Assembly (NCBI GenBank): GCA_027007025.1 | Contig: JALTFL010000005.1 | Span: 44,911 to 108,910 of the forward strand | Length of the DNA stretch: 64,000 bases | DNA from: Nanobdellati archaeon | GTDB lineage: Archaea > Nanobdellota > Nanobdellia > CSSed11-243R1 | Direction of reading: 5' to 3' | In this document: positions 12,375-59,559 of the stretch, one piece after another | Position numbering within the stretch: the first letter of the stretch is position 1 | Layout of the letters: each line of letters begins with the position of its first letter | Notes under the pieces: generated by a model | What the model saw: the letters and a program-made list of their open reading frames with translations, nothing else | Databases searched by the model: none | What the model was told of the DNA's origin: nothing | Program-made: the position numbers and the translations under genes

Positions 12375-14261
12375 CTATCCCTTCTCGCCGTAAATGTGGA
12401 CATACGTCCAGAATAATTTTTTCTGTCGCCATACTTTTACCTTAAAACCATGTCTTTCAAAAAGCTGGTGTAATTCTACTTTGTCCTCAATTATTGGCTT
12501 GTCAAGGAAGTGCCCGGGATAATCATAATCCACGAAGTATATCTTGCCGTTCTTACGCATCCTCTTCTTTATTTCATTGAGTATAAAATCAAGTCTGTCT
12601 ATGTAACCAAGCACGCCCACGCCAACAACAGCGTCGAGCTTTCTAAGTTTTTTGTCCACCTTTTTGTTCTTGCTCAAGTTGTAGAAGTTTTCCCTTATGA
12701 ATTCCACGTTTTTGATGTCCATCTTCTTTGAAATTGTTTTTGCTATGTTTAACGTTCTTTTGGAAAAATCAACGCCGTATACAATCCCAGATGTAGGTAT
12801 AACTTCCTTTGCTATCTTGTTGGTTATAACTCCGACACCGCATCCCAAGTCAAGAACCCTTTCGATTGTCACATCACTCAAATAATTTAAAATGTGATTC
12901 GAGATGTCTTTGTCAATGAACAATTTGTCAAACCAATAGCTAATACCAGCGAATACATCTGAAAACATTTTGATTATTCTCTCATGATAACCAAGGGTTG
13001 CTATGAAATAAAAGTCGATTCCAAGTAGGATGAAGATAGAACCTATAAGAATATTCTCGAATGTTGTTGAAATAATCATAACGCCGATAAGCAGTGCTGC
13101 AAGCCCAAAGGATATAATTCTTGGAAAGGGGAGTTTGAATTCTCTTTTTAGGTGTGGATGAGTCTTTCTTAGTTTAGGCACACTTAAAATAGTAATTACG
13201 TACATCATTATTGCTAAAGGCAGCGCTATCCCAAGTAGTAGCTTGTAAGAGCCGGACAAAATAACAAGTATGGTAATTATTGCTTGTAATATTATAGCTA
13301 TATATGGAGTTTTGTATTTTTTGTGTACTCTTCCAAAGCTGGCAGGTAGGACTTTATCTTTTGACATAGCGTATATCAAACGAGGAGTTGTTATTATCCA
13401 TGATGCTGCGCTCCCCATTATCGTTACTACAGTGAGTAAGGCTATAAACTCAACAATCTGTGGGGAAAAAAACTTAGATGCCACGAGTAAAAGAGGATAA
13501 CTTGACGCCCCAAGTTCTTTAGCAGGTACAGATGTTAAGGAAACAAAAATCAGAAACATGACGAATGCGGAGATGATAATTGTTCCAATAAGTAATGCTT
13601 TTGGTATATTCTTCCTTGGGTTTTTTGTTTCTTCTGATAAATAGGTTACAGACTCCCACCCAAAAAAAGTTTCAATTGCGTAAAAGGTTGCAATGATAAT
13701 GGGCATTGTTGCAGCCCATCCAATTCTCCCAATATCTTTAATATTGTTTAGATTGATGGCGGTGCTTCCTGAAAATGAGATTAATGAGAGGACAGTTATA
13801 GTAACCATTGAAAAGCCGACAAGCATCTTTCCGCTTATGCTTATTCCCCTAAGACTGACATAGTTAATGATAAGAATATAAGATATTGCGATAATCATTT
13901 TTAAGGTATAAGATACAGGAAAGATTATACTTAGATAATCTATGCTTCCAACTATTAACATCGCAATGACTATATTTGCTACAATCCATGACATCCAGCC
14001 GACTGTGAATCCAGTTGTTTTCCCAAACGCCTTTTTTGTGTACTCATATACACCTCCTGCTTTTGGATACATACTGGATAATTCTGAAAATACAGATGCA
14101 ATTAATATGGATATAACAATAGCGAGCATCCATGAGATTATTGAGTCCGAGCCAGCAATTGACGCTGCGATTCCTGGTGCAAAAAATATTCCCGTGCCTA
14201 TAAGTGCGTTAATCGTTAAAAAAATCAGCATGCGGAATGATAAACTTCTCTTTAATGCCAT
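12375..14261 (-). CDS. APC-family amino acid/polyamine permease fused to a C-terminal class I SAM-dependent methyltransferase domain
   Basis: The N-terminal ~440 aa are polytopic with an APC signature (NALIGTGIFFAPG..SELSSMYPKAGGVYEY). The C-terminal ~180 aa carry VLDLGCGVG, GVDFS and DAVVGVGVLGYI. Confidence 0.8.
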   Translation of the reverse strand: MALKRSLSFRMLIFLTINALIGTGIFFAPGIAASIAGSDSIISWMLAIVISILIASVFSELSSMYPKAGGVYEYTKKAFGKTTGFTVGWMSWIVANIVIAMLIVGSIDYLSIIFPVSYTLKMIIAISYILIINYVSLRGISISGKMLVGFSMVTITVLSLISFSGSTAINLNNIKDIGRIGWAATMPIIIATFYAIETFFGWESVTYLSEETKNPRKNIPKALLIGTIIISAFVMFLIFVSLTSVPAKELGASSYPLLLVASKFFSPQIVEFIALLTVVTIMGSAASWIITTPRLIYAMSKDKVLPASFGRVHKKYKTPYIAIILQAIITILVILSGSYKLLLGIALPLAIMMYVITILSVPKLRKTHPHLKREFKLPFPRIISFGLAALLIGVMIISTTFENILIGSIFILLGIDFYFIATLGYHERIIKMFSDVFAGISYWFDKLFIDKDISNHILNYLSDVTIERVLDLGCGVGVITNKIAKEVIPTSGIVYGVDFSKRTLNIAKTISKKMDIKNVEFIRENFYNLSKNKKVDKKLRKLDAVVGVGVLGYIDRLDFILNEIKKRMRKNGKIYFVDYDYPGHFLDKPIIEDKVELHQLFERHGFKVKVWRQKKLFWTYVHIYGEKG

Positions 14262-34139: not shown

Positions 34140-34256
34140 TGCCCGCAGCTATGCTGCCTTCCCTGCCAAGGGCAAGTACAAACAGCACCGCGAAAGGGCT
34201 TAACTTCTGGGTTCGAAATGGGACCAGGTGTTTCCCCTTTCCTATGACCGCGAGCA
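34140..34256 (-). rRNA. rrf: 5S ribosomal RNA
   Basis: The minus strand reads ...CACCUGGUCCCAUUUCGAACCCAGAAGUUAAGCC..., the conserved 5S loop B/helix III core. The termini UGCUCGCGG and CUGCGGGCA pair (9 bp including G-U). It is a local GC-rich island. Confidence 0.9.
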
Positions 34257-39554: not shown

Positions 39555-40286
39555 TTATACCCCCATAAGCAACCTTAATGTATCTCTTAAGGCAGGTGCA
39601 AGACCAATAGCGAATACAGCAAGTAATAAGAATTTTCTTAAATTTTCATCTTCAGAATACTTGTTGATTACATAAACTGTTGGGAGGATAACTAATAATT
39701 TTAGTATGAACATTGCAGAAGGCCCGAATAAGTTTATAAGAAATGTAGGTAAGACATGCTGTTCTCCATAGCCATAAAATGTTAGAGCTGTGAATGTCGC
39801 CGATGCATCGAACATGTGTGTCCAAACAGCTGAAAGGGAAAAAATATCTATTTTAACATACTTGTTGATAGCGTAAATAATCACAGCTATAATCCCTGCA
39901 ATAGTAATTATTATTAGTGCACCTATAACATTACTTAGCTTAATGAAAGGAAGATGAATCAATATTCCGATTGCGGCGGTCAGCGTCAATGTTTTCCAGA
40001 GCTCAAATTTTTTGTTTTTTTCAATCCAAATTCCTAGATATGTAATAGGTACGAACAAAGCAGCAAACAAAATTAGTATACCTGGTGAAACTGTGAAAAA
40101 TGTTTTAGGATAAATCCCTACATCTTCAAAAACCCTAACAATCGCTGAAAGAAAAACCCATGAAGATAGTCCAATTAGAAGGTATTTATCAATTTTTATT
40201 TTATATCTTTTGAAAAATAAGTAAGTAAAATAAACTAATAAAACTAACACAACTCCTAGTAAAAGCGTCGTGTATATAGTATACAT
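39555..40286 (-). CDS. archaeal polytopic membrane protein (DUF63-like)
   Basis: 243 aa, 7 TM segments. HMFDASATF...YGEQHVLP resembles DUF63. Recognition is from memory only. Confidence 0.5.
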   Translation of the reverse strand: MYTIYTTLLLGVVLVLLVYFTYLFFKRYKIKIDKYLLIGLSSWVFLSAIVRVFEDVGIYPKTFFTVSPGILILFAALFVPITYLGIWIEKNKKFELWKTLTLTAAIGILIHLPFIKLSNVIGALIIITIAGIIAVIIYAINKYVKIDIFSLSAVWTHMFDASATFTALTFYGYGEQHVLPTFLINLFGPSAMFILKLLVILPTVYVINKYSEDENLRKFLLLAVFAIGLAPALRDTLRLLMGV

Positions 40287-40290
40287 CCCT

Positions 40291-40710
40291 TCACCGTTTC
40301 AGTAAATACCTCTCGATGTAATCTAATTTTTCGTTTATTCTATCTATGCTTGATTTAAGTGTGTCTATCTTTGAGGCAAGTACGTCAATCCTGCTGTTTA
40401 GAATCTGATTGTTGTTTGTTTGTTGTGTTTGTTGTTGCGGCTGCCCAAAATTTATTGATGTTGGTGACATTGGCGGCGCTTGAGTTGGAATTGGTGGCGG
40501 TGCTGATGGAGGTATAGGTGGCTCCTGCATTCCAAAGACAGGCTGACGCCCAGGTTGTTGCATAGTATTTCCTGGCGGCATATTCATTTGAGGATTCATT
40601 GGTGCATTCATATTTGCTGCTTGAGTTCCAAAATCATTTGCTCCTAAATCTCCACCACCTAAGTCTCCCAAGTCATCGTCTTTCTTTTTGAACAAATCAA
40701 ATAATCCCAT
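40291..40710 (-). CDS. low-complexity Q/P/M/N-rich protein with FG motifs and C-terminal coiled coil
   Basis: Starts MGLFDLFKKKDDD. About 85 aa of disordered sequence contain DFGTQ, VFGMQ and NFGQP. It ends ILNSRIDVLASKIDTLKSSIDRINEKLDYIERYL. Start moved to the ATG at 40710. Confidence 0.55.
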   Translation of the reverse strand: MGLFDLFKKKDDDLGDLGGGDLGANDFGTQAANMNAPMNPQMNMPPGNTMQQPGRQPVFGMQEPPIPPSAPPPIPTQAPPMSPTSINFGQPQQQTQQTNNNQILNSRIDVLASKIDTLKSSIDRINEKLDYIERYLLKR

Positions 40711-40789
40711 AAGTTTAATTAAAATTATTTTAGTTATTAAGTTTTCTATAAAGGACAATTTTATATATGTCCAATTATTACCTTTAATC

Positions 40790-42289
40790 ATGGCGGCAGA
40801 TGACTCAAGGGAAAAAATTAAAGCAATACTGACGCGCTCTTTTGTGAACAAATACGAAATGATTATCCAAAGCTTTACTCACAGCATTGAGCAGTATTAC
40901 TTTTGGCTAATTAATTTTGTGAGTAAATTAGGTTATAAAATTGAGAAAGACAAGGAGCAGATGGCAGCGAGCGTGGTTTCGCAGTTCTTCGGGGAAATGT
41001 CCGTGAGAAGGCAACATCTAGAAAGAAGAGGCATGGAAATCCTTGCCACAATTAATACAGTTATAAAATCAATTGTGAACCTGCTTTATGACTTGCGTGA
41101 ATTTGACAGGCGTCTTGAAGTTTACAAAGACTTACATAGCAATGACCCAAAAAAGAGAGAAGCGGCAAGGTTGACTCTCAAGAGGATATGGATGGATGAA
41201 GTTGATGTAAGGAAAGGCGGCGCTTCAATAAATGCCATGACTGCTCAAAGAGGACTCGAGTTTACAACTCTTAGAGATTCTTTCATGGTTGTAAATAGTT
41301 TGGACGCTATCGCCAAGATGGACTTAAATGATAGGGTAAAACGGATTCTAAAAGGAAGACTCGAAGAGTACTTGAAGTGGGAGAAAGAAAGCGAAAAAGA
41401 ATTGACGCAGCGTAGGAAAATTGAGCTCGCTTATCTTAAGTCACAAGTTGAGGCATTGCGTTTGTATTCTATATGGGCTAAGCCATATCTGAAAGCCGCT
41501 CAGATGCTTAGTTTTAAGGAGCCTAAAGTTAACGACCCTTTTTTGATACAGGCGTTTGATCAAAGCGTTATAGAAATAGTTATTCGAGGGATAAAGAAAT
41601 ATAATCTGCATAATTTCAAAATGCCTGGGGGGTTGCCTGTGAAATATTCGCCTCCACTGATAAAGAAGCCGTTGGTGCCGCTTTTAAGCGAGCCAAAAGT
41701 TTATACCTCTAAAGAGCAAAGCGAAATGAAAGAAAAAAGAGGCGGGCCTCATGCATATTCTATAATTGAATTAAGATTCTTATGGCGGACAAAGCCTGCT
41801 CTTGTTTCACAGTCTCAAACAGGAGGAGCATATAGGCAGTTGGGAATGCTGGACATTAAGTTTATTGGATATGCAATGACTGAAGAGGAATTTAAATCCC
41901 TTAAAAAGCAGGAAGAACATGAAGCCATGAAATTTATAGAAGGTATGACAACGGAGAGCTTGGAAGCCATGCGTGAGGAACTCGAAAAATATCTCGACGA
42001 GGCGGACATGATTGAGAAGAAGGAAAAGAAAAATTCATTTGTTCCGTTGTTGGATAGAATCTCCAGAAAGCCCGGCTCAAAAGGAGGGCTTTTTGACTCA
42101 ATGTTTTCCACTAACAAAATTTTGGAGAGGAAGGTTAAGGAATTGACTATGAAAGAAACGGCGAATGCTTTATTTACTGTATATGACATCTTCAAGAAAG
42201 CATTTAGGTTCAAATCATTTCCGTATCCGCCGGAGATTAAACCTACTGAAAAATCGGTAATCAAACCGCCTGATCCAGTCGAGTTTTGA
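40790..42289 (+). CDS. large hypothetical protein (499 aa), mostly helical N-terminal half
   Basis: Starts MAADDSREK, divergent from 40291-40710 across a 79-nt AT-rich spacer with TATA-like boxes. No P-loop, TM segment or other known motif was seen. Confidence 0.6.
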   Translation: MAADDSREKIKAILTRSFVNKYEMIIQSFTHSIEQYYFWLINFVSKLGYKIEKDKEQMAASVVSQFFGEMSVRRQHLERRGMEILATINTVIKSIVNLLYDLREFDRRLEVYKDLHSNDPKKREAARLTLKRIWMDEVDVRKGGASINAMTAQRGLEFTTLRDSFMVVNSLDAIAKMDLNDRVKRILKGRLEEYLKWEKESEKELTQRRKIELAYLKSQVEALRLYSIWAKPYLKAAQMLSFKEPKVNDPFLIQAFDQSVIEIVIRGIKKYNLHNFKMPGGLPVKYSPPLIKKPLVPLLSEPKVYTSKEQSEMKEKRGGPHAYSIIELRFLWRTKPALVSQSQTGGAYRQLGMLDIKFIGYAMTEEEFKSLKKQEEHEAMKFIEGMTTESLEAMREELEKYLDEADMIEKKEKKNSFVPLLDRISRKPGSKGGLFDSMFSTNKILERKVKELTMKETANALFTVYDIFKKAFRFKSFPYPPEIKPTEKSVIKPPDPVEF

Positions 42290-42324
42290 ACAATTTTAAA
42301 AGAGATAATTGTTTAGTATATCAT

Positions 42325-42960
42325 ATGGCATTAGAGCTAAAGCTCATAATTGAGGAGCTTAACAAGATAGAAACAAAAAAAGGTAAATTAAAATATTTAG
42401 AGGGCATAATCTTCAAGACAAAGGACAAAAAAATCAAAGAGCAACTAATTAAATTTTTAGAAATGATACAAAAAAACGGGAAAAGGCTTTCTTTTGAAGA
42501 AATCCACAATGGCGAGCAGAAAAAACCGACAAAATCTCTTGAGGAAGTAATACAACACAATACAGAAAAATTTGATGAATCAAAAATCGAGCTTAAAGAT
42601 TATTTGAATGAGTTACCAAGCGAAGATGCGCTAACTTCTCCTGACTTTGTAGAAGGAGAATTAAAAGATAAAACATACATCCAATTGGAAACATACAAAC
42701 AAACTGACAAGGAAGATTATACCCCCAAATTGGATTCGGAGTATGAGCGAAGAGATGCTTTAGAAAACATTGATGAAACTGAAGAGTTTTTATCATCGCG
42801 CGGCTTGGAAACTGAACCCTCTGTCTCAAGGGAAAAGCGCCCATTTGTCGAGGCTACAATGGGAGAATATAAAAGTAAAGAGATTATTACTAAATCTATA
42901 AATGAAATGCACAAGAAAGAAGAAGAATACAAGCGAAAGCTTGAAAAAGGCATTATTTAG
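42325..42960 (+). CDS. hypothetical acidic, probably disordered protein
   Basis: Follows the 499-aa gene directly. Alternative TTG start at 42286 overlaps its stop. E/K/D-rich. Confidence 0.5.
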   Translation: MALELKLIIEELNKIETKKGKLKYLEGIIFKTKDKKIKEQLIKFLEMIQKNGKRLSFEEIHNGEQKKPTKSLEEVIQHNTEKFDESKIELKDYLNELPSEDALTSPDFVEGELKDKTYIQLETYKQTDKEDYTPKLDSEYERRDALENIDETEEFLSSRGLETEPSVSREKRPFVEATMGEYKSKEIITKSINEMHKKEEEYKRKLEKGII

Positions 42961-42969
42961 GCGGTAAAA

Positions 42970-44652
42970 ATGTATGACAATATGAGGTTTGAATATGCAC
43001 ATTTTAATGCTATGGATTTTGGTAGCTACGGCCTTGGGGCTAGTGTTTCTCCTATGGGCTCTCAGCTGATGACAACAAACACTGCAATTAACTGGGGGCT
43101 TCAAAATTTAGAAGTTAATCTTGGTACACAGATGAACTACCAACAAACGGGGCATCTTGCGCAGCTTGGAAAAATAGAAAGGGATGAACTTATACGACTC
43201 GCGAAATTAAATAGAGTGAATCTCTCTGTTCACGCGCCCCTTTTAAGCCCGGAAGGATTGCAGGGAAATCAAATTAGCGAAACTGCGCGCATTAAAAATG
43301 TGAAGGAATTTGAACAAACTCTAGATTTTGTGGATCAGATAGGAAAGAAAACGGGAAGGAAGCATATTCCAGTTACATTTCATTCCAGTGGGGCGCCTAT
43401 AGGTAATCCCATGCCAAAAGAGATGATATATGCAGTTAATCAAGAAAATGGGCAGGTAATTCCATTGGAAAAGAAAGAAGTCGCATATCCAAAGGAATAC
43501 TTTGATAGATACGGATTAAAAGAAGGAGTGGATTACGCGCCAGTGGAGGGCAAGCAAGGTTACTACTACATGTATCCTCAGGCAGAACTTAAAATTTATG
43601 GAAAATCACAGCTTCAGAAATTAAAGTATGAAGAAGCCCACGCGGATTACTGGCTGAGGCATTACAAGGAACAGATGAAGCAATTTGTTCAGGGAACTTC
43701 TGCTGTAGGGGATGTTGACAAAAATCCTGTGGCGGTTGCCGAACGGCTTAAGAGCATTGGCGGGCAAGCCGCGGAAGTAGCTCATAACTATGAAGCATTA
43801 CTTGACCAAAAAAGAACCCTCGAAGCTGAAGCCCAAAATCTGAGAAAGAAATATGAAAGAAACGGACAGCTTAATGCTCTTGTTCCGAGCGAAGAATATG
43901 TGAAGGAAAAAATGAAAAAAACTTTTGTGGAACTTGGCTTGAAAGCATATGACAAGCCGTCAAAGCCCATGATAGTGATTGAAAACTTTTATCCTGAATT
44001 CACTTTGAGCGACCCGACAAAGCTTGCCAAGACGATTGATGAAATAAGAGGCGAACTGGCAAACAAGCTCGTCAAGGAGAAAGGAATTTCAAAAAACAGA
44101 GCCATGCAGGAGGCGCAGCAGCTTGTCGGCATGAATGTTGATGTCGGGCATTTAAACTTGTGGAAAAAATACACAAACCCAAAAACAGGAAAACCCTACA
44201 CCGATAAAGAGATAATTGATTGGGTAAAGAAAGTTTATCCATACATAAAACACGTTCACATAACCGACAATTTTGGAGACTACGATGCGCATATGCCTGT
44301 TGGGTGGGGAAATGCCCCAGTTAACCAGATGATTGATGTTCTCAGGAAAAAAGGTTGGAAAGGAAGAGCAATTCTTGAGACTTTTGGTGCCACTCAATAC
44401 GGCGGGCAAGGATTTGGAGTCGCGCAGTCAATGTATCAAATGGGCATGCCGCTTGTTCCTGGAGGACCGGGATGGGAGATGGCAGAAGGCACGTATTTCC
44501 AGGCCGGATACTCATTTACTACGGGCCCAATTCTGCCTGATGTTAACTTTTCAACTTATGGAGTCGGATTTTCAGGACTGCCGTATGCGACGGGAGCGCA
44601 GATAGGCGGGCAAAAGCCCGGGCAGAAATTCTCCGGAACTCCAATGAGTTAA
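42970..44652 (+). CDS. endonuclease IV-like (xylose isomerase-like TIM barrel) protein with large insertion and G/P/Y/F-rich tails
   Basis: Ordered metal-ligand motifs VHAP, TFHSSG, VIENF, DVGH, HVHITDN, DAHMPVGWG and AILET resemble the Nfo trinuclear site. About 215 aa are inserted between FHSSG and IENF. Confidence 0.65.
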   Translation: MYDNMRFEYAHFNAMDFGSYGLGASVSPMGSQLMTTNTAINWGLQNLEVNLGTQMNYQQTGHLAQLGKIERDELIRLAKLNRVNLSVHAPLLSPEGLQGNQISETARIKNVKEFEQTLDFVDQIGKKTGRKHIPVTFHSSGAPIGNPMPKEMIYAVNQENGQVIPLEKKEVAYPKEYFDRYGLKEGVDYAPVEGKQGYYYMYPQAELKIYGKSQLQKLKYEEAHADYWLRHYKEQMKQFVQGTSAVGDVDKNPVAVAERLKSIGGQAAEVAHNYEALLDQKRTLEAEAQNLRKKYERNGQLNALVPSEEYVKEKMKKTFVELGLKAYDKPSKPMIVIENFYPEFTLSDPTKLAKTIDEIRGELANKLVKEKGISKNRAMQEAQQLVGMNVDVGHLNLWKKYTNPKTGKPYTDKEIIDWVKKVYPYIKHVHITDNFGDYDAHMPVGWGNAPVNQMIDVLRKKGWKGRAILETFGATQYGGQGFGVAQSMYQMGMPLVPGGPGWEMAEGTYFQAGYSFTTGPILPDVNFSTYGVGFSGLPYATGAQIGGQKPGQKFSGTPMS

Positions 44653-44694
44653 TTTAATAATTGAATGTTTATTTAGAAATTAAGGTGAGGTGTG

Positions 44695-45501
44695 ATGGAT
44701 AGACCAAGAAAATTGACACATAAAGAAAAAGAAAGATTATTAGGCGAATCTTATAGAGTCGGTTACAGTTTTGCCAAAAACGTTTTTGAGCTTTTTCCAG
44801 GACTTATAAAATCAGTTGTGCTGTTCGGCTCGATTGCGAAAGCAACGCCGACGAAAGGCAGTGACATTGATATTCTCGTAGTTGTTGATGATACTTCAAT
44901 CACACCTGACAGAAAATTCATTGACTGGTACAACATCGAGCTTGCGAATTTGATAAGGAAAAGCGACCCGCGCCTTCATGTGACTACGGTCACGCTGACA
45001 ACATTTTGGGAAAATATTCTTATTGGAGAACCTGTTGTAATAAACGTGCTTCGCTATGGTGTCGCGCTTATAGACACAGGTTATTTTGAACCGTTGCAGT
45101 TTCTTCTCGCTGCGGGCAGAATCCGTCCGACAAAGGAAGCAATTTACAATGCCCTGACAAGAGCTCCATGGCACTTTACAAGAGCAAATTCAAGAATACT
45201 TGCTGGCATAGTCGATTTATATTGGGTCATGATAGACTCCGCGCATGCGGCGCTCATGGCATACGGAAAAGTGCCCCCATCTCCGGAGCACATAGAAAGG
45301 ATGCTTATGGATACTTTTGTTTCCAGAAAGATGCTCAAGAAGAAATACGTGAATTATTATAGAGAGATATGGCAAACTTCAAAAGCCGTTGTTCATGGGG
45401 AAATTCTCCGCGGTAATGGGGTTGACTTTGATAGATATAGAGAAATGGCAGAAGATTTCGAAAGCAAAATGAAGGATTTGGTAAAAAGAAAAGAAAAGTA
45501 A
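44695..45501 (+). CDS. KNTase-like nucleotidyltransferase (Pol-beta NTase domain plus helical C-domain)
   Basis: LFGSIAKATPTKGSDIDILVVVDD is followed by a helical domain (FWENILIGEPVVINVLRYGVALIDTG...). Confidence 0.7.
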   Translation: MDRPRKLTHKEKERLLGESYRVGYSFAKNVFELFPGLIKSVVLFGSIAKATPTKGSDIDILVVVDDTSITPDRKFIDWYNIELANLIRKSDPRLHVTTVTLTTFWENILIGEPVVINVLRYGVALIDTGYFEPLQFLLAAGRIRPTKEAIYNALTRAPWHFTRANSRILAGIVDLYWVMIDSAHAALMAYGKVPPSPEHIERMLMDTFVSRKMLKKKYVNYYREIWQTSKAVVHGEILRGNGVDFDRYREMAEDFESKMKDLVKRKEK

Positions 45502-45509
45502 AATTAGGA

Positions 45510-46307
45510 TTAAATATCCTCGATGCTCATTCCGTGCTTTTGTAATTCATTTGATATACCTTTGTAAGTTTTTAATGTGTTAACTGCGTAATCCATCAAC
45601 ATTTTGTAGGTATTATATTCTTTTGCTTTTCCACTTTCGCTTAATACTTTAGACACATCATTGGCATACCCCATGATATTGTCTTTATTCTTTTCCAGCC
45701 ATGGTTTTACTTTTAACTTACCATACATTACTCTGTAGTTTGTAATTTTAGTATTGTCCCATGCGTCGTCGGACCATACTTCAGTGTAAAGCTCAACCAA
45801 CGCATCAATTTCCTCTTTATCCATATTGTTTGCTTCAAGGGCTTTTCTGAGGTATTTGTTTGCGTACTCGGATGCTATGTTTTTGGCAGCATCGCTTTCC
45901 AAATTACCCTCACCTATGGCTTTGATTGTTTTAGAATGCTCGTCTTCAAGAACGCTTGAAACACCAGCATAATCCCCAATCTCTGTAAGTTTCTTGAATG
46001 ACATCTCATATGCCAATATAGGGTCTACTTTGATAAATGACTCATATGCGGTTTCGGCAATTTTTGGCAGATTTTTATTTAAGTGTATACCACCTAAAAT
46101 TCCTGCCAGCTTTCTGGAAACATCCGCTATATTTGCATTGCTAGGAAGGGCACCAACTTCCCCTGATAATCCATACATATGAATATATTTCATAAGAGCT
46201 TTCTTTGCATTTTCTTTGTTTTCAGGATCTTTAGACTGGAGTTGTTTTAGAAATTCATCTATTTTCATAGGAGTTTCAATTTCAGATAATATATCTTCCA
46301 ACACCAT
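45510..46307 (-). CDS. hypothetical helical protein
   Basis: 265-aa ORF between the two NTase paralogs, on the opposite strand. No motif recognised. Confidence 0.5.
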   Translation of the reverse strand: MVLEDILSEIETPMKIDEFLKQLQSKDPENKENAKKALMKYIHMYGLSGEVGALPSNANIADVSRKLAGILGGIHLNKNLPKIAETAYESFIKVDPILAYEMSFKKLTEIGDYAGVSSVLEDEHSKTIKAIGEGNLESDAAKNIASEYANKYLRKALEANNMDKEEIDALVELYTEVWSDDAWDNTKITNYRVMYGKLKVKPWLEKNKDNIMGYANDVSKVLSESGKAKEYNTYKMLMDYAVNTLKTYKGISNELQKHGMSIEDI

Positions 46308-46418
46308 TTTATTACCACCTCACAGTAATAAATAGAACAATCAGTATTTATAAATGTTTCGATTTAGTTATGGATAACATTATAAATAAAGACAAAATTA
46401 ATTAAGCTGGTGAAAAAA

Positions 46419-47561
46419 ATGGCCAAAAAAATCAAGAAAGTTAAATCTAATAAAAAACAAACTAAAGGGAAGGAAGAACTTCTGAAAAAAGCCAAAGAGC
46501 AAATAGTTGAAAGGCTAATAAAAGAGAAAGGTATCTCAAAGGAAGAGGCCGAAAAGGTTGCCGGCAAGCTTATTGCTCAAAAGTTATCAACGGGTGATAC
46601 TCCTGTATTACAAGTTCTAAAGCAGTTTTTAAATGACAAAGACGCGAAAGCAGTCGACCAATATGTGGCGTCTGTAGTTGGAAAGTTTGGAAAGTATATC
46701 AAATCTGTGGTTCTATGGGGCAGTACAAAAACAAAGAAGACATTAGCCAAAAAGAAGAAAGTTCATGACATTGATATAGCAATCATTGTTGATGACACTG
46801 ATGTAAGAAGGATGACAAGGGGAGAATTAAAGGACAAATTATTCCAGAGACTTCTTGAAATGGGATATCCCATATCAAAAAAAATACATCCTCAACCTTA
46901 TTTGCTAACTGAATTTTGGCAGTATGTTCTTGAAGGAAACCCTGTTCTCTACAACGTGCTTAGAGATGGCGTGATAATGTATGATACGGGATTCTTTTTG
47001 CCCGTCCAGATGCTTATGAAGATGGGTAACATAAAGCCGAGCAAGGAATCAATTGACAAGCATATATATATTGCAAATGAGCTTTTGAAGTTGTCCAAAA
47101 ATACAATGCTTACAAAAATGTCATATGATTTAGAACAGGCAGTAGTTTCGAGCGCGCAGGCAGTTTTAATGGAATTAGGATATCGCCCGCCAACACCAAG
47201 CGAGACTCCAAAATTCGTTCTTGACAAATTGGTTAAAGAGGCAAAAGTTGTTCCAGAAAAATACGCAAAAATCGCGGAAACAATAGTCAAAAATTATAAA
47301 GATATTGAGCATAAAGACAAAAAAACGTATACTGGCAAGGAATGGGACAAACACCTTGCGATGACGGAAGACTTTGTCAAGAAGATGACGGATGTCCTCA
47401 AGAAAATCAGGGAAAAGAAAGGAGAAACATTCCTCTATGAAGCAGTCGAGAAAAAGAAAAACCTAAAGGTTAAGCGTCCTACGGACATCGAGCTTGACAG
47501 AGGAGAAAAATCTCTTGAGAAGTCAGATGAAATAATCAAAAAGGAGCTCGGACAGCGCTAA
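46419..47561 (+). CDS. KNTase-like nucleotidyltransferase, paralog of 44695-45501, with K-rich N-terminal extension
   Basis: LWGSTKTKK...VHDIDIAIIVDD, and FWQYVLEGNPVLYNVLRDGVIMYDTG parallel to the paralog. A GTG at 46410 is an alternative start. Confidence 0.7.
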   Translation: MAKKIKKVKSNKKQTKGKEELLKKAKEQIVERLIKEKGISKEEAEKVAGKLIAQKLSTGDTPVLQVLKQFLNDKDAKAVDQYVASVVGKFGKYIKSVVLWGSTKTKKTLAKKKKVHDIDIAIIVDDTDVRRMTRGELKDKLFQRLLEMGYPISKKIHPQPYLLTEFWQYVLEGNPVLYNVLRDGVIMYDTGFFLPVQMLMKMGNIKPSKESIDKHIYIANELLKLSKNTMLTKMSYDLEQAVVSSAQAVLMELGYRPPTPSETPKFVLDKLVKEAKVVPEKYAKIAETIVKNYKDIEHKDKKTYTGKEWDKHLAMTEDFVKKMTDVLKKIREKKGETFLYEAVEKKKNLKVKRPTDIELDRGEKSLEKSDEIIKKELGQR

Positions 47562-56837: not shown

Positions 56838-57941
56838 TTATTTACCCCCTTTAGCTAAATAGCTTGTGATTGTAAGCAGATAATCTACCGCGCTTATAAT
56901 CGGAACGTGGGGGATGTTATTTTCTTCGCAATATTTATGTGCTGGAGTACCATATTGTGCAAAAAATATTGTGTTTCTTCCTTTGAAAACATCTCCCGGC
57001 TTGTCTCCGATATGAGTTATGGCAAAGTCTTCATCGCCAAAAATTTCATTCCCCAAAATGTTCGCGGTTGTTTCCTTTGTTGGAGATTTTCCGTCCCCAA
57101 TATATATGATGTCTGCATTGTAATCTGGATTCACATCTATCTTCCAGCTTTCGGGCACGCTTTCCTCAAAGAAATTAACCATATCATCAAGAGTGAAGCT
57201 TTTATTTTCTTTATCATCCCTCTTAAAGTATAATTTACCATTTTCTTCTCTCAACCTGATTGACTGGAGAGGATATTCTTTTCTCATAACTTCATCAAGC
57301 AAAGCAATACCTTCAGGTTCAAATTCAACATATTCTCCATCAAATCCAAAAAGGTTATTGTTATCCCTTTCTTTGATTGCATTATAAATGTCTCTTGTAG
57401 GAACATTGCTTCCCTTGACAAGAAAATGATTTCGTATATCTCCTCTTTCTGGAGCGTCGCCCTCGATGTATATACATCCGACTCTTTTAGAGAAATTTCC
57501 TTGAAACGCTATTTTCAGATTTTCCTCCGCCGCATTTTCGATAACATTCCTTATCATACCATAATAAATATCTTCCGCAATTGGATTTACCTCATTAACC
57601 TTGTTATCCTTCAGATATACTGCACCGTCTTCGCCAATTAGATTAATCGAATTATCCCCTAACCGCTTATCTCTAAAGTTTATAAGCGTGGACAAGTCCC
57701 ATCCCGAATTTATTGCAATGGGTATATATTCCTGAACGCGACTCTCAAGAAAATGAAGAGATGTTGCAACACCCCACCACGGAAAGAAACCCGCATCTAT
57801 CAGTCTTGTAAGAGGTCCCTGAACATCCATGGATATCATTAAATTTTTTGCGCCTATTGATTTTAATTGTCTCTCAAACTGTTCTCTCTTTTCATCAATG
57901 TACCAGGAGGTATAACCAAGGGCTTCTATTATTTTATCCAT
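56838..57941 (-). CDS. hypothetical protein, possibly divergent HAD-IIB-like
   Basis: MISMDVQGPLT resembles motif I (DxDGT) with Q in place of the second Asp. HIGDKPGD resembles motif IV. This is a weak call. Confidence 0.45.
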   Translation of the reverse strand: MDKIIEALGYTSWYIDEKREQFERQLKSIGAKNLMISMDVQGPLTRLIDAGFFPWWGVATSLHFLESRVQEYIPIAINSGWDLSTLINFRDKRLGDNSINLIGEDGAVYLKDNKVNEVNPIAEDIYYGMIRNVIENAAEENLKIAFQGNFSKRVGCIYIEGDAPERGDIRNHFLVKGSNVPTRDIYNAIKERDNNNLFGFDGEYVEFEPEGIALLDEVMRKEYPLQSIRLREENGKLYFKRDDKENKSFTLDDMVNFFEESVPESWKIDVNPDYNADIIYIGDGKSPTKETTANILGNEIFGDEDFAITHIGDKPGDVFKGRNTIFFAQYGTPAHKYCEENNIPHVPIISAVDYLLTITSYLAKGGK

Positions 57942-59559
57942 TTATATCACCTATATCTGAAACCAAATGTGGTACTTTTTCGATATCAGAAAGATTTCTG
58001 ACTAGAAATCCACGAGTCCCACATTCCTGAACTGCTGGATTTAAATCTCTCTCGTAAGAATCTCCTACAACCAAAACTTCTTCTGGCTTTAGCCCTAGCT
58101 TTTCAATTGCCAAATCAAAGAACTTTCTTGATGGTTTCATGCTGCCAACATCGTCAGAGGTTACAACAACCTCAAAATATCTTTTCCAATTCGGAATGGC
58201 TCTTCCAAGTTTCATTTCAAGAATATCTCTATATTCGTCGCTTGAAATTGCTAGCTTGTACCCATCTTTTTTTAGTTTTTCAACTACATCACTTAAATTA
58301 TAATGAAATTCGAGACTGTTTAACAGATTATCCCAAAAAATTTGGGTTCCTTTGGAAACAACTTCCTCAGGGACAACATCTAAAAACTCTTGCAATGTAT
58401 CACTAAGAACATTTTCAATGCGTCTTGCATTTAAGTCTTTATACTGCTTATGTGCATTATAATTTTTAATCCATGCTGGAATTAACTTTTTCTTAGGAAC
58501 TCCAACTTCCCCTTCTATGTAATTAAGCATCGCAGTGTATGCCCATTCTTTATTATGCTCATAAAGAGTATGGTCTGCATCAAAAATGATTCCTTTTACT
58601 TTATTTCCATAAACTAAGTCAAGAATCTTCTTGACTACCTTTGAAGAATCGTACTCTATCCCACCACTATCTTTTAGTAAATCCGCACTGATAAATTTTT
58701 CAGGCAAATTTTTACTGAATGGAACAATCTCTCTAACAAGAGGTTCCTCATGCATATAGGATTGTATTCTGCTTTCATCAGGGAGTGTATTATTATATAG
58801 AATATATAGTTCACTGCCAATATACTTTTCAACTTCATCTGCAAAATCTTCCACAGTGAATCCGTTTGTTTCCCCAAATTTAGTCATAGCTGGGCATATA
58901 AAAATCTTCTTTGCCTTTGACTTCTTAATTGCCTCTGCGATTCCATCATGTAAAAAATTCGGTAGAATGGATGAATATAAATCCCCAGGTCCTATTAGTA
59001 TAACATCTGCATCTTTAATTTCTTTTATTACTGAAGGGTATGCTTTTGATTGAGGATTTACAAAAATTCTACTTATCTTTAAGTTTCCATCATGTTTTTT
59101 TGGAACATCAATTTCATCCTCACCTTTGATTATTTCCCCATTTTCAAGCTCAGCATAAAGCATTGTTTTGCTTATCGTTGCGGGTAAGCATTTTCCTCTA
59201 ACTTCCATAAAATTATGAAGAAATGAGAGCACATCTTTATAGTCATCTGTTGTTTTTTCAAGCCCAGCAATTAGTATATTCGCAAAATTATGTCCTTTAT
59301 GCCCCCCTTCAAAAACAAGATAATTTGCAAATCTAAATTTCCATAGCTTTTTCTTCCACTCTTCCGCATCCGATAATGCAAATATGTGCCTTTTAATATC
59401 TCCAGGGGGTAAAATATCCAATTCTCTCCTTAGAGCGCCAGTGCTTCCCCCATTATCAACCATAGATGTAACACTCACTATATCAACGCCATAATTTTTC
59501 AATTCGCTTAATACAACGTTTGGCATTGCGTTTCCACCACCAAAACACACGAACTTCAT
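57934..59559 (-). CDS. CofD/YvcK-family (UPF0052) domain fused to C-terminal HAD hydrolase domain
   Basis: N-terminus FGGGNAMPNVVL...VTSMVDNGGSTGALRRE. C-terminus IIFDADHTLYEH ... MKPSRKFF ... VGDSYERD. Confidence 0.75.
   Translation of the reverse strand: MKFVCFGGGNAMPNVVLSELKNYGVDIVSVTSMVDNGGSTGALRRELDILPPGDIKRHIFALSDAEEWKKKLWKFRFANYLVFEGGHKGHNFANILIAGLEKTTDDYKDVLSFLHNFMEVRGKCLPATISKTMLYAELENGEIIKGEDEIDVPKKHDGNLKISRIFVNPQSKAYPSVIKEIKDADVILIGPGDLYSSILPNFLHDGIAEAIKKSKAKKIFICPAMTKFGETNGFTVEDFADEVEKYIGSELYILYNNTLPDESRIQSYMHEEPLVREIVPFSKNLPEKFISADLLKDSGGIEYDSSKVVKKILDLVYGNKVKGIIFDADHTLYEHNKEWAYTAMLNYIEGEVGVPKKKLIPAWIKNYNAHKQYKDLNARRIENVLSDTLQEFLDVVPEEVVSKGTQIFWDNLLNSLEFHYNLSDVVEKLKKDGYKLAISSDEYRDILEMKLGRAIPNWKRYFEVVVTSDDVGSMKPSRKFFDLAIEKLGLKPEEVLVVGDSYERDLNPAVQECGTRGFLVRNLSDIEKVPHLVSDIGDING

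Follow-up and report, generated by a model that had tools for sequence, protein, structure and literature searches.

Two described protein families come close to genes of the locus reported here. The first is that of endonuclease IV (EndoIV). An archaeal EndoIV that is only 13.5% identical to Nfo is active, and MJ1311 is the predicted EndoIV homologue of M. jannaschii (Kiyonari et al., PMC2770678). The structure of MJ1311 was deposited as a 'D-tagatose 3-epimerase-like protein' (PDB 3wqo). The second family comprises a minimal nucleotidyltransferase (MNT) fused to a HEPN domain. It was catalogued as cls.004259/NEQ050 by Makarova, Wolf and Koonin (2019), who named it as a DPANN signature and a priority 'dark matter' target and remarked on its unusual conservation. 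NEQ050 has a length of 540 amino acids (aa) and was detected in the proteome of N. equitans. A probable member of the second family (E) and an unusual enzyme of the EndoIV type (D) are encoded next to each other in a Nanobdellati archaeon, on a stretch of 64,000 nucleotides (positions 44,911 to 108,910, forward strand, of contig JALTFL010000005.1, assembly GCA_027007025.1) that is referred to as the window. Together with three further genes they form the unit A to E, a housekeeping operon that is conserved among DPANN archaea (GTDB Nanoarchaeota / Nanobdellota).

This association of five genes was not described in the literature found on DPANN and EndoIV-type proteins. D and E belong to known superfamilies, in which they are unusual, and the family that probably includes E has already been flagged as a DPANN signature, whereas B is an orphan occurring in at least 503 species. 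A first-pass annotation of the window had described A to D as a divergent module with one leftward and three rightward genes. All four open reading frames (ORFs) are present in the ORF list at these positions, and B, C and D do follow each other rightward, but the unit runs on into E, 39 nt past D.

Organization of the locus

Positions are counted from the first nucleotide of the window.

40291 to 40710, minus strand: gene A, 139 aa, comprising a hydrophobic-basic peptide at the N-terminus, a variable linker rich in P, Q and G, and a coiled coil at the C-terminus
40681 to 40710, minus strand: residues 1-10 of A, MGLFDLFKKK, a candidate amphipathic membrane-targeting or docking peptide
40294 to 40422, minus strand: residues 97-139 of A, the C-terminal coiled coil (...SKIDTLKSSIDRINEKLDYIERYLLKR)
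40711 to 40789, no strand: divergent intergenic spacer between A and B, 79 nt, 83.5% A+T, with TATA-like boxes
40790 to 42289, plus strand: gene B, 499 aa, isoelectric point (pI) 9.45, a member of an orphan alpha/beta family
42038 to 42109, plus strand: residues ~417-440 of B, a disordered K/E-rich loop with the hydrophobic motif GGLFDSMFSTNK
42325 to 42960, plus strand: gene C, 211 aa, in which a helical hairpin at the N-terminus precedes a charged, variable tail and a basic end
42970 to 44652, plus strand: gene D, 560 aa, an expanded xylose-isomerase-like triosephosphate isomerase (TIM) barrel of the MJ1311/endonuclease IV type
43387 to 43887, plus strand: residues ~140-306 of D, an insertion between strand beta3 and helix alpha3
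44488 to 44649, plus strand: residues 507-560 of D, a disordered tail ending in a conserved peptide
44692 to 45501, plus strand: gene E, 269 aa, a minimal nucleotidyltransferase with a HEPN-like helical domain
46410 to 47561, plus strand: gene G, 383 aa, paralogous to E but longer, with the gene for ribosomal protein L35Ae behind it

The AT-rich spacer with TATA-like boxes had been noted in the first-pass annotation. In it, TTTTATATA precedes the start codon of B by about 24 nt, a position that would suit a leaderless archaeal transcript of B; a sigma-70 promoter scan is not informative, the host being an archaeon. The genes are separated by 35 nt (B-C), 9 nt (C-D) and 39 nt (D-E), with C starting at the ATG that yields 211 aa, a choice backed by its homologues. 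B, D and E are basic (pI 8.7-9.5). Scanning of the window sequences revealed neither a P-loop motif nor a hydrophobic 19-residue window of the transmembrane type in the locus proteins, which agrees with the earlier statement that the 499-aa protein B lacks both. G is a nearby relative of E whose membership of the unit is not established.

Conservation of gene order and distribution

Gene order was analyzed in 80 loci anchored on B and 80 loci anchored on D, taken from GTDB contigs with one genome per species. The six-frame ORFs of these loci were searched with jackhmmer profiles seeded from the window proteins. D was located within 1.7 kb of B on the same strand in 55 of the 65 B loci that offered at least 3 kb of downstream sequence. 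The most conserved neighbour of D is E, which was found on the same strand and within 1 kb downstream in 119 of the 131 D loci whose downstream sequence reached at least 1.2 kb. Of the 55 loci in which D is close downstream of B, 26 were found to contain a C-like ORF of ~200 aa between the two genes, and the start of C overlaps the stop of B in 14 loci. An A-like ORF diverging from B within 400 nt was present in 27 of 67 loci, a minimum count given the short length and partial low complexity of A. The genes predicted to form a module therefore co-occur in relatives, and their order is kept.

The order and strand of B-(C)-D-E hold in Woese-, Pace- and Nanoarchaeia where B shares only 35-50% identity, while the flanking genes differ. 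This is illustrated by a complete Woesearchaeal genome, in which B is 35% identical and B-D-E is retained amid changed flanking genes. DUF63, Cdc6 and L35Ae were not counted as part of the unit, as they are neighbours in close relatives only; the order G-L35Ae recurs in several loci. D and E are overlapping or directly adjacent in 26 Parvarchaeales loci, where none of A, B and C was found within 6 kb of D-E. Two small ORFs located 5' of D in Parvarchaeales were considered as a split version of B or C. This was ruled out, as they encode membrane proteins without a profile match. Since the Parvarchaeales keep D-E without A, B and C, D-E is the deepest unit, and B, C and A joined it within the branch of the Woese-, Pace- and Nanoarchaeia.

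B was found in at least 503 and D in at least 546 GTDB species genomes. All homologues of B and D belong to DPANN archaea, labelled as Nanoarchaeota, Woesearchaeota, Pacearchaeota or Parvarchaeota. A few records bear bacterial labels; with at least 56% identity to the window protein they are probably mis-binned contigs. No relative of B was detected among the IMG/VR viral contigs, and A to D matched none of the PADLOC defence models. The remainder of the window encodes housekeeping functions, namely Cdc6/Orc1, PAC2, DUF63 (now AliA_AliB), ABCE1, SRP54, FtsY, Trm1, CorA, L35Ae and 5S rRNA. Together, the housekeeping context, the absence of B from IMG/VR and the lack of defence-model matches for A to D indicate that the locus is chromosomal and part of the core genome. 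The operon is very probably real. Its genes are likely to be important, as their order is fixed across hundreds of species despite the very small genomes of DPANN archaea. Linking A to E also defines a protein set for co-expression and for concrete activity, docking and membrane assays.

The expanded TIM barrel D

The Pfam model AP_endonuc_2 matched D with 55 bits (cut-off 31.1), but only at residues 386-475 in the last third of the protein. The AlphaFold2 (AF2) model, with a predicted local distance difference test (pLDDT) of 81.6 and a predicted template modelling score (pTM) of 0.79, contains a complete TIM barrel of eight beta-alpha units. The termini are disordered (residues 1-19 and 507-560, with a pLDDT below 50 in the tail). 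The insertion of ~165 aa after β3 forms five short strands and two long helices, mostly at a pLDDT above 90, and is present in all family members, Parvarchaeales included. According to the topology of TIM barrels it would be positioned on the catalytic face.

A Foldseek search with this model yielded 52 PDB matches at E<=1e-3, and the 50 listed were almost all xylose-isomerase-like TIM barrels. MJ1311 (3wqo) occupied the top two places with a TM score of 0.71-0.73 on the target, followed by Babesia APN1, UlaE, ketose epimerases, bacterial endonuclease IV and xylose isomerases, the EndoIV structures being matched at E ~1e-5 to 1e-6. MJ1311 was also reached by the D family profile (E=1e-13), as the sole TIM barrel among eleven weak matches below E=1, with a match spanning the β5-β8 half. 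Thus, the nearest relative of D by sequence and structure is MJ1311, and the aligned segments have VHAP, DxGH and HxHxxDNxGxxDxHLxxGxGN in common. However, MJ1311 has only 293 aa and lacks both the ~165-aa insertion between β3 and α3 and the conserved disordered termini of D. Unlike D, it has no known partners of the B, C or E type.

Nine residues of D correspond to the metal ligands of endonuclease IV. Among 64 sequences, no variation was seen at H88, H138, E338, D391, H394, H430 and E470, and conservation is at least 90% at D439 and H441. These residues are part of the motifs VHAP, TFHS, VIEN, DVGH, HITDN, DAH and ILET at the strand ends, which parallel HDSY, FHPG, IENT, DTCH, HLND, DRH and ILET of E. 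coli Nfo. In this way the positions match all nine Nfo ligands (H69, H109, E145, D179, H182, H216, D229, H231 and E261), of which only the H216/D229/H231 block is paired by alignment of hidden Markov models (HMMs), the other six being matched by motif and strand position. Ketose 3-epimerases have four ligands and bind one metal, whereas D keeps the five extra ligands of the EndoIV type. As positions corresponding to the full trinuclear-metal site of nine residues are retained, D is predicted to be a phosphoesterase, and an assignment to the metallo-phosphoesterases is likely. Among the NCBIfam models no curated epimerase or isomerase model was reached.

The earlier description of D as endonuclease IV-like thus applies to the metal site, whereas the nearest solved relative is MJ1311 and not a proven Nfo. 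D has the TIM fold and the equivalent strand-end motifs in common with Nfo/Apn1, but is twice the size, carries the insertion and a docking-type conserved tail, and has no significant sequence match to a proven Nfo; an hhalign comparison of the D profile with E. coli Nfo was not significant either. D is therefore best named a predicted metallo-phosphoesterase of the MJ1311/EndoIV type. It represents an unusual, double-size metal enzyme of the endonuclease IV type.

The C-terminus of D had been regarded as low complexity, a description that does not apply to the family. In 130 distinct homologues the last 30 residues follow the pattern (Y/F)G(A/S)GFSxLPxELGGQxxGxxSR(F/M)(S/A)G(T/R)P(M/N)x. Because this terminal peptide is conserved and yet disordered, it points to a docking motif rather than a prion-like domain, and implies a dedicated partner.

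The nucleotidyltransferases E and G

E matched the Pfam models NTP_transf_2 (2e-10) and Polbeta (6e-8), and both matches occurred in all 46 aligned homologues. The nucleotidyltransferase motif (G-S...DxD), represented by FGSIAKATPTKGSDIDILVVVDD, is intact, and G46, D58 and D60 are invariant. Profile matches in the PDB comprised MNT antitoxins and kanamycin nucleotidyltransferase. It is thus likely, on these predictions, that E is an active nucleotidyltransferase. The helical C-terminal part shows weak HEPN matches in Pfam in 4 of 46 homologues, and a conserved R157 is followed by a histidine at +4 (RAPWH), a shorter spacing than in the canonical HEPN motif R-x(4-6)-H.

G matched Polbeta only weakly in Pfam, but the profiles of E and G match each other at ~1e-100. 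Both probably belong to the cls.004259/NEQ050 family, with which they were compared by description only. Like E and G, members of that family combine a Pol-beta/MNT domain with a weakly HEPN-like helical C-terminus, are found in a housekeeping context and are conserved across DPANN archaea, and NEQ050 (540 aa) is similar in length to the long forms of G. Makarova et al. described the family without a stated link to a TIM barrel or to B.

An N-terminal segment of G, LIKEKGISKEEAEKVAGKL, is similar to residues 364-384 of D, LVKEKGISKNRAMQEAQQL, and the iterated G profile recovers D at ~1e-20. The segment common to G and D may be a helix-hairpin-helix-like element.

Two E homologues (L028:5236-7467 and L060:9331-12318) carry a coiled-coil tail of 450-700 aa. 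These long tails contain repeated (L/M)(E/D)FP(E/D/A)F motifs, end with ...LEFPDFK and are confined to one Woesearchaeal sub-lineage. We take the LEFPDF motif to resemble the conserved C-terminal peptide of FtsZ (D-I-P-x-F-L-R-K).

The orphan family B

More than 940 homologues of B were found by a word-indexed search, all without a Pfam domain or an informative name. An exhaustive profile search yielded 847 representatives at 50% identity, essentially all of which have a length of 450-560 aa. The single sequence had no match in Pfam, NCBIfam, PHROGs or PADLOC. No recurrent Pfam match (E<=0.5) was detected across all 65 aligned members, and ten unusually long homologues showed no informative fusions in Pfam. 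Neither the single sequence nor the profile matched a PDB sequence.

An AF2 model of B calculated from the alignment (pLDDT 82, pTM 0.65) shows five long beta strands packed on three helices of 50-59 residues, preceded by two short beta-alpha units at the N-terminus. The helices span residues 65-115, 181-239 and 365-415, and strands are located at 259-272, 321-342 and 345-364. The first-pass annotation had called B mostly helical, which is appropriate for the three long helices but leaves out the strands. No Foldseek match had an E-value below 0.1 in the PDB or a TM score above ~0.1 in BFVD. The best rows, which included designed helical bundles, CapZ beta, BAR domains, ClyA and levivirus maturation proteins, had TM scores of ~0.1-0.2 and were treated as noise. 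This null result from PDB and BFVD is no proof of a new fold, as elongated multi-domain models align poorly. B is an orphan at every level searched, i.e. sequence, profile and PDB/BFVD structure. A family of 500-aa proteins without detectable relatives in sequence or fold merits follow-up.

Many polar residues between positions 30 and 240 of B are invariant (E34, D101, D139, D163, E193 and several R/K), which indicates that the protein is more than a passive coiled coil. The loop at residues ~417-440 has a pLDDT below 50. It harbors the motif GGLFDSMFS in the window and NPFxALFSFFK, GLFESLFGK or FFEALFGK in relatives (65 homologues), and is similar to the N-terminus of A, both being hydrophobic-basic. 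Identity of B with the 'alpha-helical' DPANN signature family NEQ484 of Makarova et al. was ruled out, as NEQ484 has only 153 aa.

One B homologue (L167:2836-8671) has a 100-aa N-terminal extension (MAVGIHKLIAAISPD...) and lacks D downstream. It is located 73 nt after the genes for an ABC (ATP-binding cassette) ATPase, a 293-aa protein of no assigned family and two MacB_PCD/FtsX permeases.

The small proteins A and C

A word-indexed search for homologues of A gave two proteins, and the family was recovered by jackhmmer on six-frame ORFs, which yielded 37 distinct homologues in related loci. A had no significant match in Pfam or NCBIfam, only weak Pfam matches of the coiled-coil type. Thus neither B, which was also searched with Foldseek, nor A, searched by sequence, could be placed in a characterised family. 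In view of this, and of a gene order kept in distant relatives, the earlier proposal that the module matches no known archaeal system was upheld.

The N-terminus of A reads MG[LIFVM][FLWI] in 23 of 37 homologues. Mostly, aromatic and aliphatic residues are followed by a K/R cluster, as in MGLFDLFKKK, MGIFSFLKKNK and MGFFSWLFRRKKK. From this pattern the peptide is a candidate for membrane targeting or docking. It presumably resembles the amphipathic membrane-targeting sequences of MinD or SepF, and the combination of a short peptide, a flexible linker and an interaction domain presumably corresponds to the arrangement of the amphipathic helices of MinD and SepF and of the P/Q linker of ZipA. 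The loop peptide of B is also similar to such membrane-tether peptides. However, A has no homology to MinD, SepF or ZipA, and its interaction module consists only of a coiled coil of ~40 aa. This coiled coil, whose heptad pattern had been recognised before, is the most conserved part of A (LDxINxKLDxLNQRLAxLER). The linker varies in length and composition among the 37 homologues, with a P+Q fraction from 0 to 0.53, and is acidic in some.

C had been described as an acidic, probably disordered protein of 212 aa. The protein has 211 aa, is no more than mildly acidic (pI 5.3, 49 acidic and 41 basic residues) and begins with a conserved hairpin. Alignment of 36 homologues revealed that this N-terminal helical hairpin comprises ~55 aa (...K-Φ-x-Y-L-x-x-Φ...D-x-x-Φ-K...) and is followed by the variable charged tail and a basic C-terminal end. 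The HMM of the hairpin also matches inside B homologues, either at the N-terminus or within the disordered loop (E-values of 5e-9 to 1e-3 in a set of ~350 proteins). This fusion-type evidence suggests that C works with B, and the K/E-rich composition of these segments calls for caution.

Proposed function and alternative explanations

D-E is the catalytic core of the unit and consists of a predicted phosphoesterase and a minimal nucleotidyltransferase with a HEPN-like domain. In Woese-, Pace- and Nanoarchaeia this pair gained three non-enzymatic partners, B, C and A. D would remove or cleave a phosphate group at a nucleic-acid end or lesion, such as a 3'-phosphate, a cyclic phosphate or an abasic-type site, and E would then attach a nucleotide either to the end thus cleaned or to a partner. 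Such an order of D and E would follow the healing-and-extension logic of DNA and RNA end repair. B, aided by C, would act as a structural hub that captures D via its conserved disordered C-terminal peptide, and the assembly could be brought to the membrane by the hydrophobic-basic, MinD-like peptides in A and in the B loop. The combined statement, an enzyme pair for phosphoester cleavage and nucleotidyl transfer with lineage-specific, probably membrane-associated partners, is put forward tentatively. For B, C and A acting as physical partners the chances are about even, and nucleic acid as the substrate is possible but somewhat doubtful. Action on nucleic-acid ends would close a gap in the DNA or RNA maintenance of these reduced organisms, and action at the membrane may be relevant to the host dependence of DPANN archaea. 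The unit is a solid, testable piece of conserved DPANN dark matter, its function being a prediction. The first-pass annotation had suggested a scaffold, a membrane accessory or a DNA-repair complex, and parts of each agree with the evidence.

Several observations weigh against the proposed function. The sequence profile of D reaches MJ1311 but no proven Nfo. No Nfo or Apn1 chain of the PDB was matched at E<=1 by either the single sequence or the family profile of D, and NCBIfam gave no nfo call but only weak FrlC (17.5 bits, cut-off 305). The 165-aa insertion, as modelled, could block access of duplex DNA. In the MJ1311 structure reported by Uechi et al. in 2014, the nine ligands are said to be kept and a DNA-binding groove is reportedly lacking. 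A basic pI is common in AT-rich genomes. The EndoIV-like protein PF1383 of P. furiosus is without AP (apurinic/apyrimidinic) endonuclease activity (PMC2770678). With respect to the partners, contacts among A, B, C and D are suggested only by gene order, one fusion pattern and motif conservation. B is separate from D in some genomes (L034, L042, L080/L136 and L167), being on different contigs of one genome in L080/L136, and in a few loci D lies several kb from B or not near it. In addition, small DPANN genomes preserve long stretches of gene order generally.

A more far-reaching version of the proposal is improbable. It regards B as a new fold that serves as a membrane hub of Nanoarchaeota-type DPANN archaea, with docking peptides of A, C and D bringing a trinuclear-metal phosphodiesterase and a nucleotidyltransferase to the membrane, where they would process host-derived nucleic acids, nucleotides or phospholipid head groups. 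If it were true, the operon would be part of the long-sought machinery of DPANN host dependence.

The general tendency to preserve gene order is central to the first alternative, in which D is the lineage's housekeeping AP endonuclease, an EndoIV orthologue with an insertion that functions in base-excision repair, and in which the slow rearrangement of small genomes has left the unrelated genes A, B, C and E near D. Close relatives do retain the unrelated flanks DUF63/AliA, Cdc6 and L35Ae as well. At deeper divergence, however, these flanks change, whereas B-(C)-D-E stays overlapping or tightly spaced. The function itself is expected in the phylum, as N. equitans has an abundant EndoIV of normal size (NEQ368, 293 aa), and it would agree with the conserved nine-ligand set and with EndoIV and APN1 among the Foldseek matches. 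Arguments in the other direction are that MJ1311 is nearer to D than any proven Nfo is, that the insertion modelled at the catalytic face sets D apart from known AP endonucleases, and that the C-terminal peptide implies a dedicated partner. The alternative appears unlikely.

The structural matches of D raise a second alternative. The best one was deposited as a 'D-tagatose 3-epimerase-like protein' and is followed by UlaE and by psicose and ribulose epimerases, and relatives of D are named 'sugar phosphate isomerase/epimerase' in their source records. D could be a sugar(-phosphate) isomerase or epimerase or another small-molecule enzyme. With E it would make or modify an envelope or lipid head-group component, either nucleotide-activated or phosphorylated, at a membrane to which A and B are tethered. 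However, D conserves the five additional His/Asp residues that belong to the trinuclear EndoIV site, as opposed to the four ligands of the epimerases, and E belongs to the Pol-beta/MNT superfamily and not to a sugar-nucleotidyltransferase family. An envelope pathway would account for the membrane-targeting-like peptides of A and the B loop, for the B homologue behind a MacB/FtsX ABC transporter and for the lipoprotein-lipidation gene DUF63/AliA adjoining the unit in the window and in close relatives, but DUF63 is a neighbour in only ~8 of 85 loci. Taken together, this alternative is unlikely, slightly more so than the first.

The first-pass annotation had seen FG-type or prion-like regions on A and D as the unifying feature of the locus, in accordance with a condensate or phase-separated scaffold. 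In the window, residues 11-95 of A are indeed rich in P, Q, G, N and M and contain FG dipeptides at residues 27, 59 and 88. In D homologues, 50% of the final 60 residues are G, P, Y, F, Q or M, compared with 28% overall, and disordered segments occur on several proteins of the unit. The feature is not conserved, however. FG dipeptides are missing from 27 of the 37 distinct A homologues, whose linkers range from P/Q-rich to acidic, and the tail of D is a fixed peptide with position-specific conservation, which suggests stoichiometric docking rather than multivalent stickers. A condensate driven by these regions is therefore very improbable. That E and G form an MNT-HEPN toxin-antitoxin or defence module within a defence island is hardly tenable, since the weak matches of E to MntA antitoxin, CBASS cyclase and HalB models and its matches to PADLOC candidate MNT models are opposed by the lack of PADLOC matches for A to D, a near-universal and syntenic rather than patchy distribution, the housekeeping context of L35Ae, ABCE1, SRP54 and Trm1, the absence of B from IMG/VR viral contigs and the atypical conservation also remarked by Makarova et al.

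The phosphoester- and nucleotide-processing pair D-E with lineage-specific partners thus remains the preferred, tentative reading of the unit.

Other genes of the window and of related loci

The gene adjoining A (39555-40286, minus strand) encodes a DUF63 membrane protein. DUF63 was renamed AliA_AliB in Pfam after the archaeal lipoprotein lipidation enzymes of Haloferax (PMC12462473). Gene F (45510-46307, minus strand) lies between E and G on the opposite strand and encodes a 265-aa orphan without a family match. It was found in 3 of the first 85 loci and recurs among close relatives.

Two fusion proteins are encoded further away. At 57934-59559 (minus strand) a 541-aa protein combines CofD (2-phospho-L-lactate transferase family) with a HAD hydrolase, an unusual architecture in a reduced DPANN genome. 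At 12375-14261 (minus strand) a 628-aa amino-acid permease is fused to a C-terminal SAM (S-adenosylmethionine) methyltransferase domain, and this fusion is kept in a related Nanoarchaeia genome (L002:1-97). No tRNA genes were detected across the 64-kb window, and a 5S rRNA gene was located at 34140-34255 (minus strand, 76 bits). In a Parvarchaeota locus (L004:13213-15567) a row of genes for a KaiC-like ATPase, a small GTPase of the Ras/Arf family (414 aa) and a Roadblock/LC7 protein follows ~3.5 kb downstream of D-E and forms an MglA/MglB-like trio of the polarity type.

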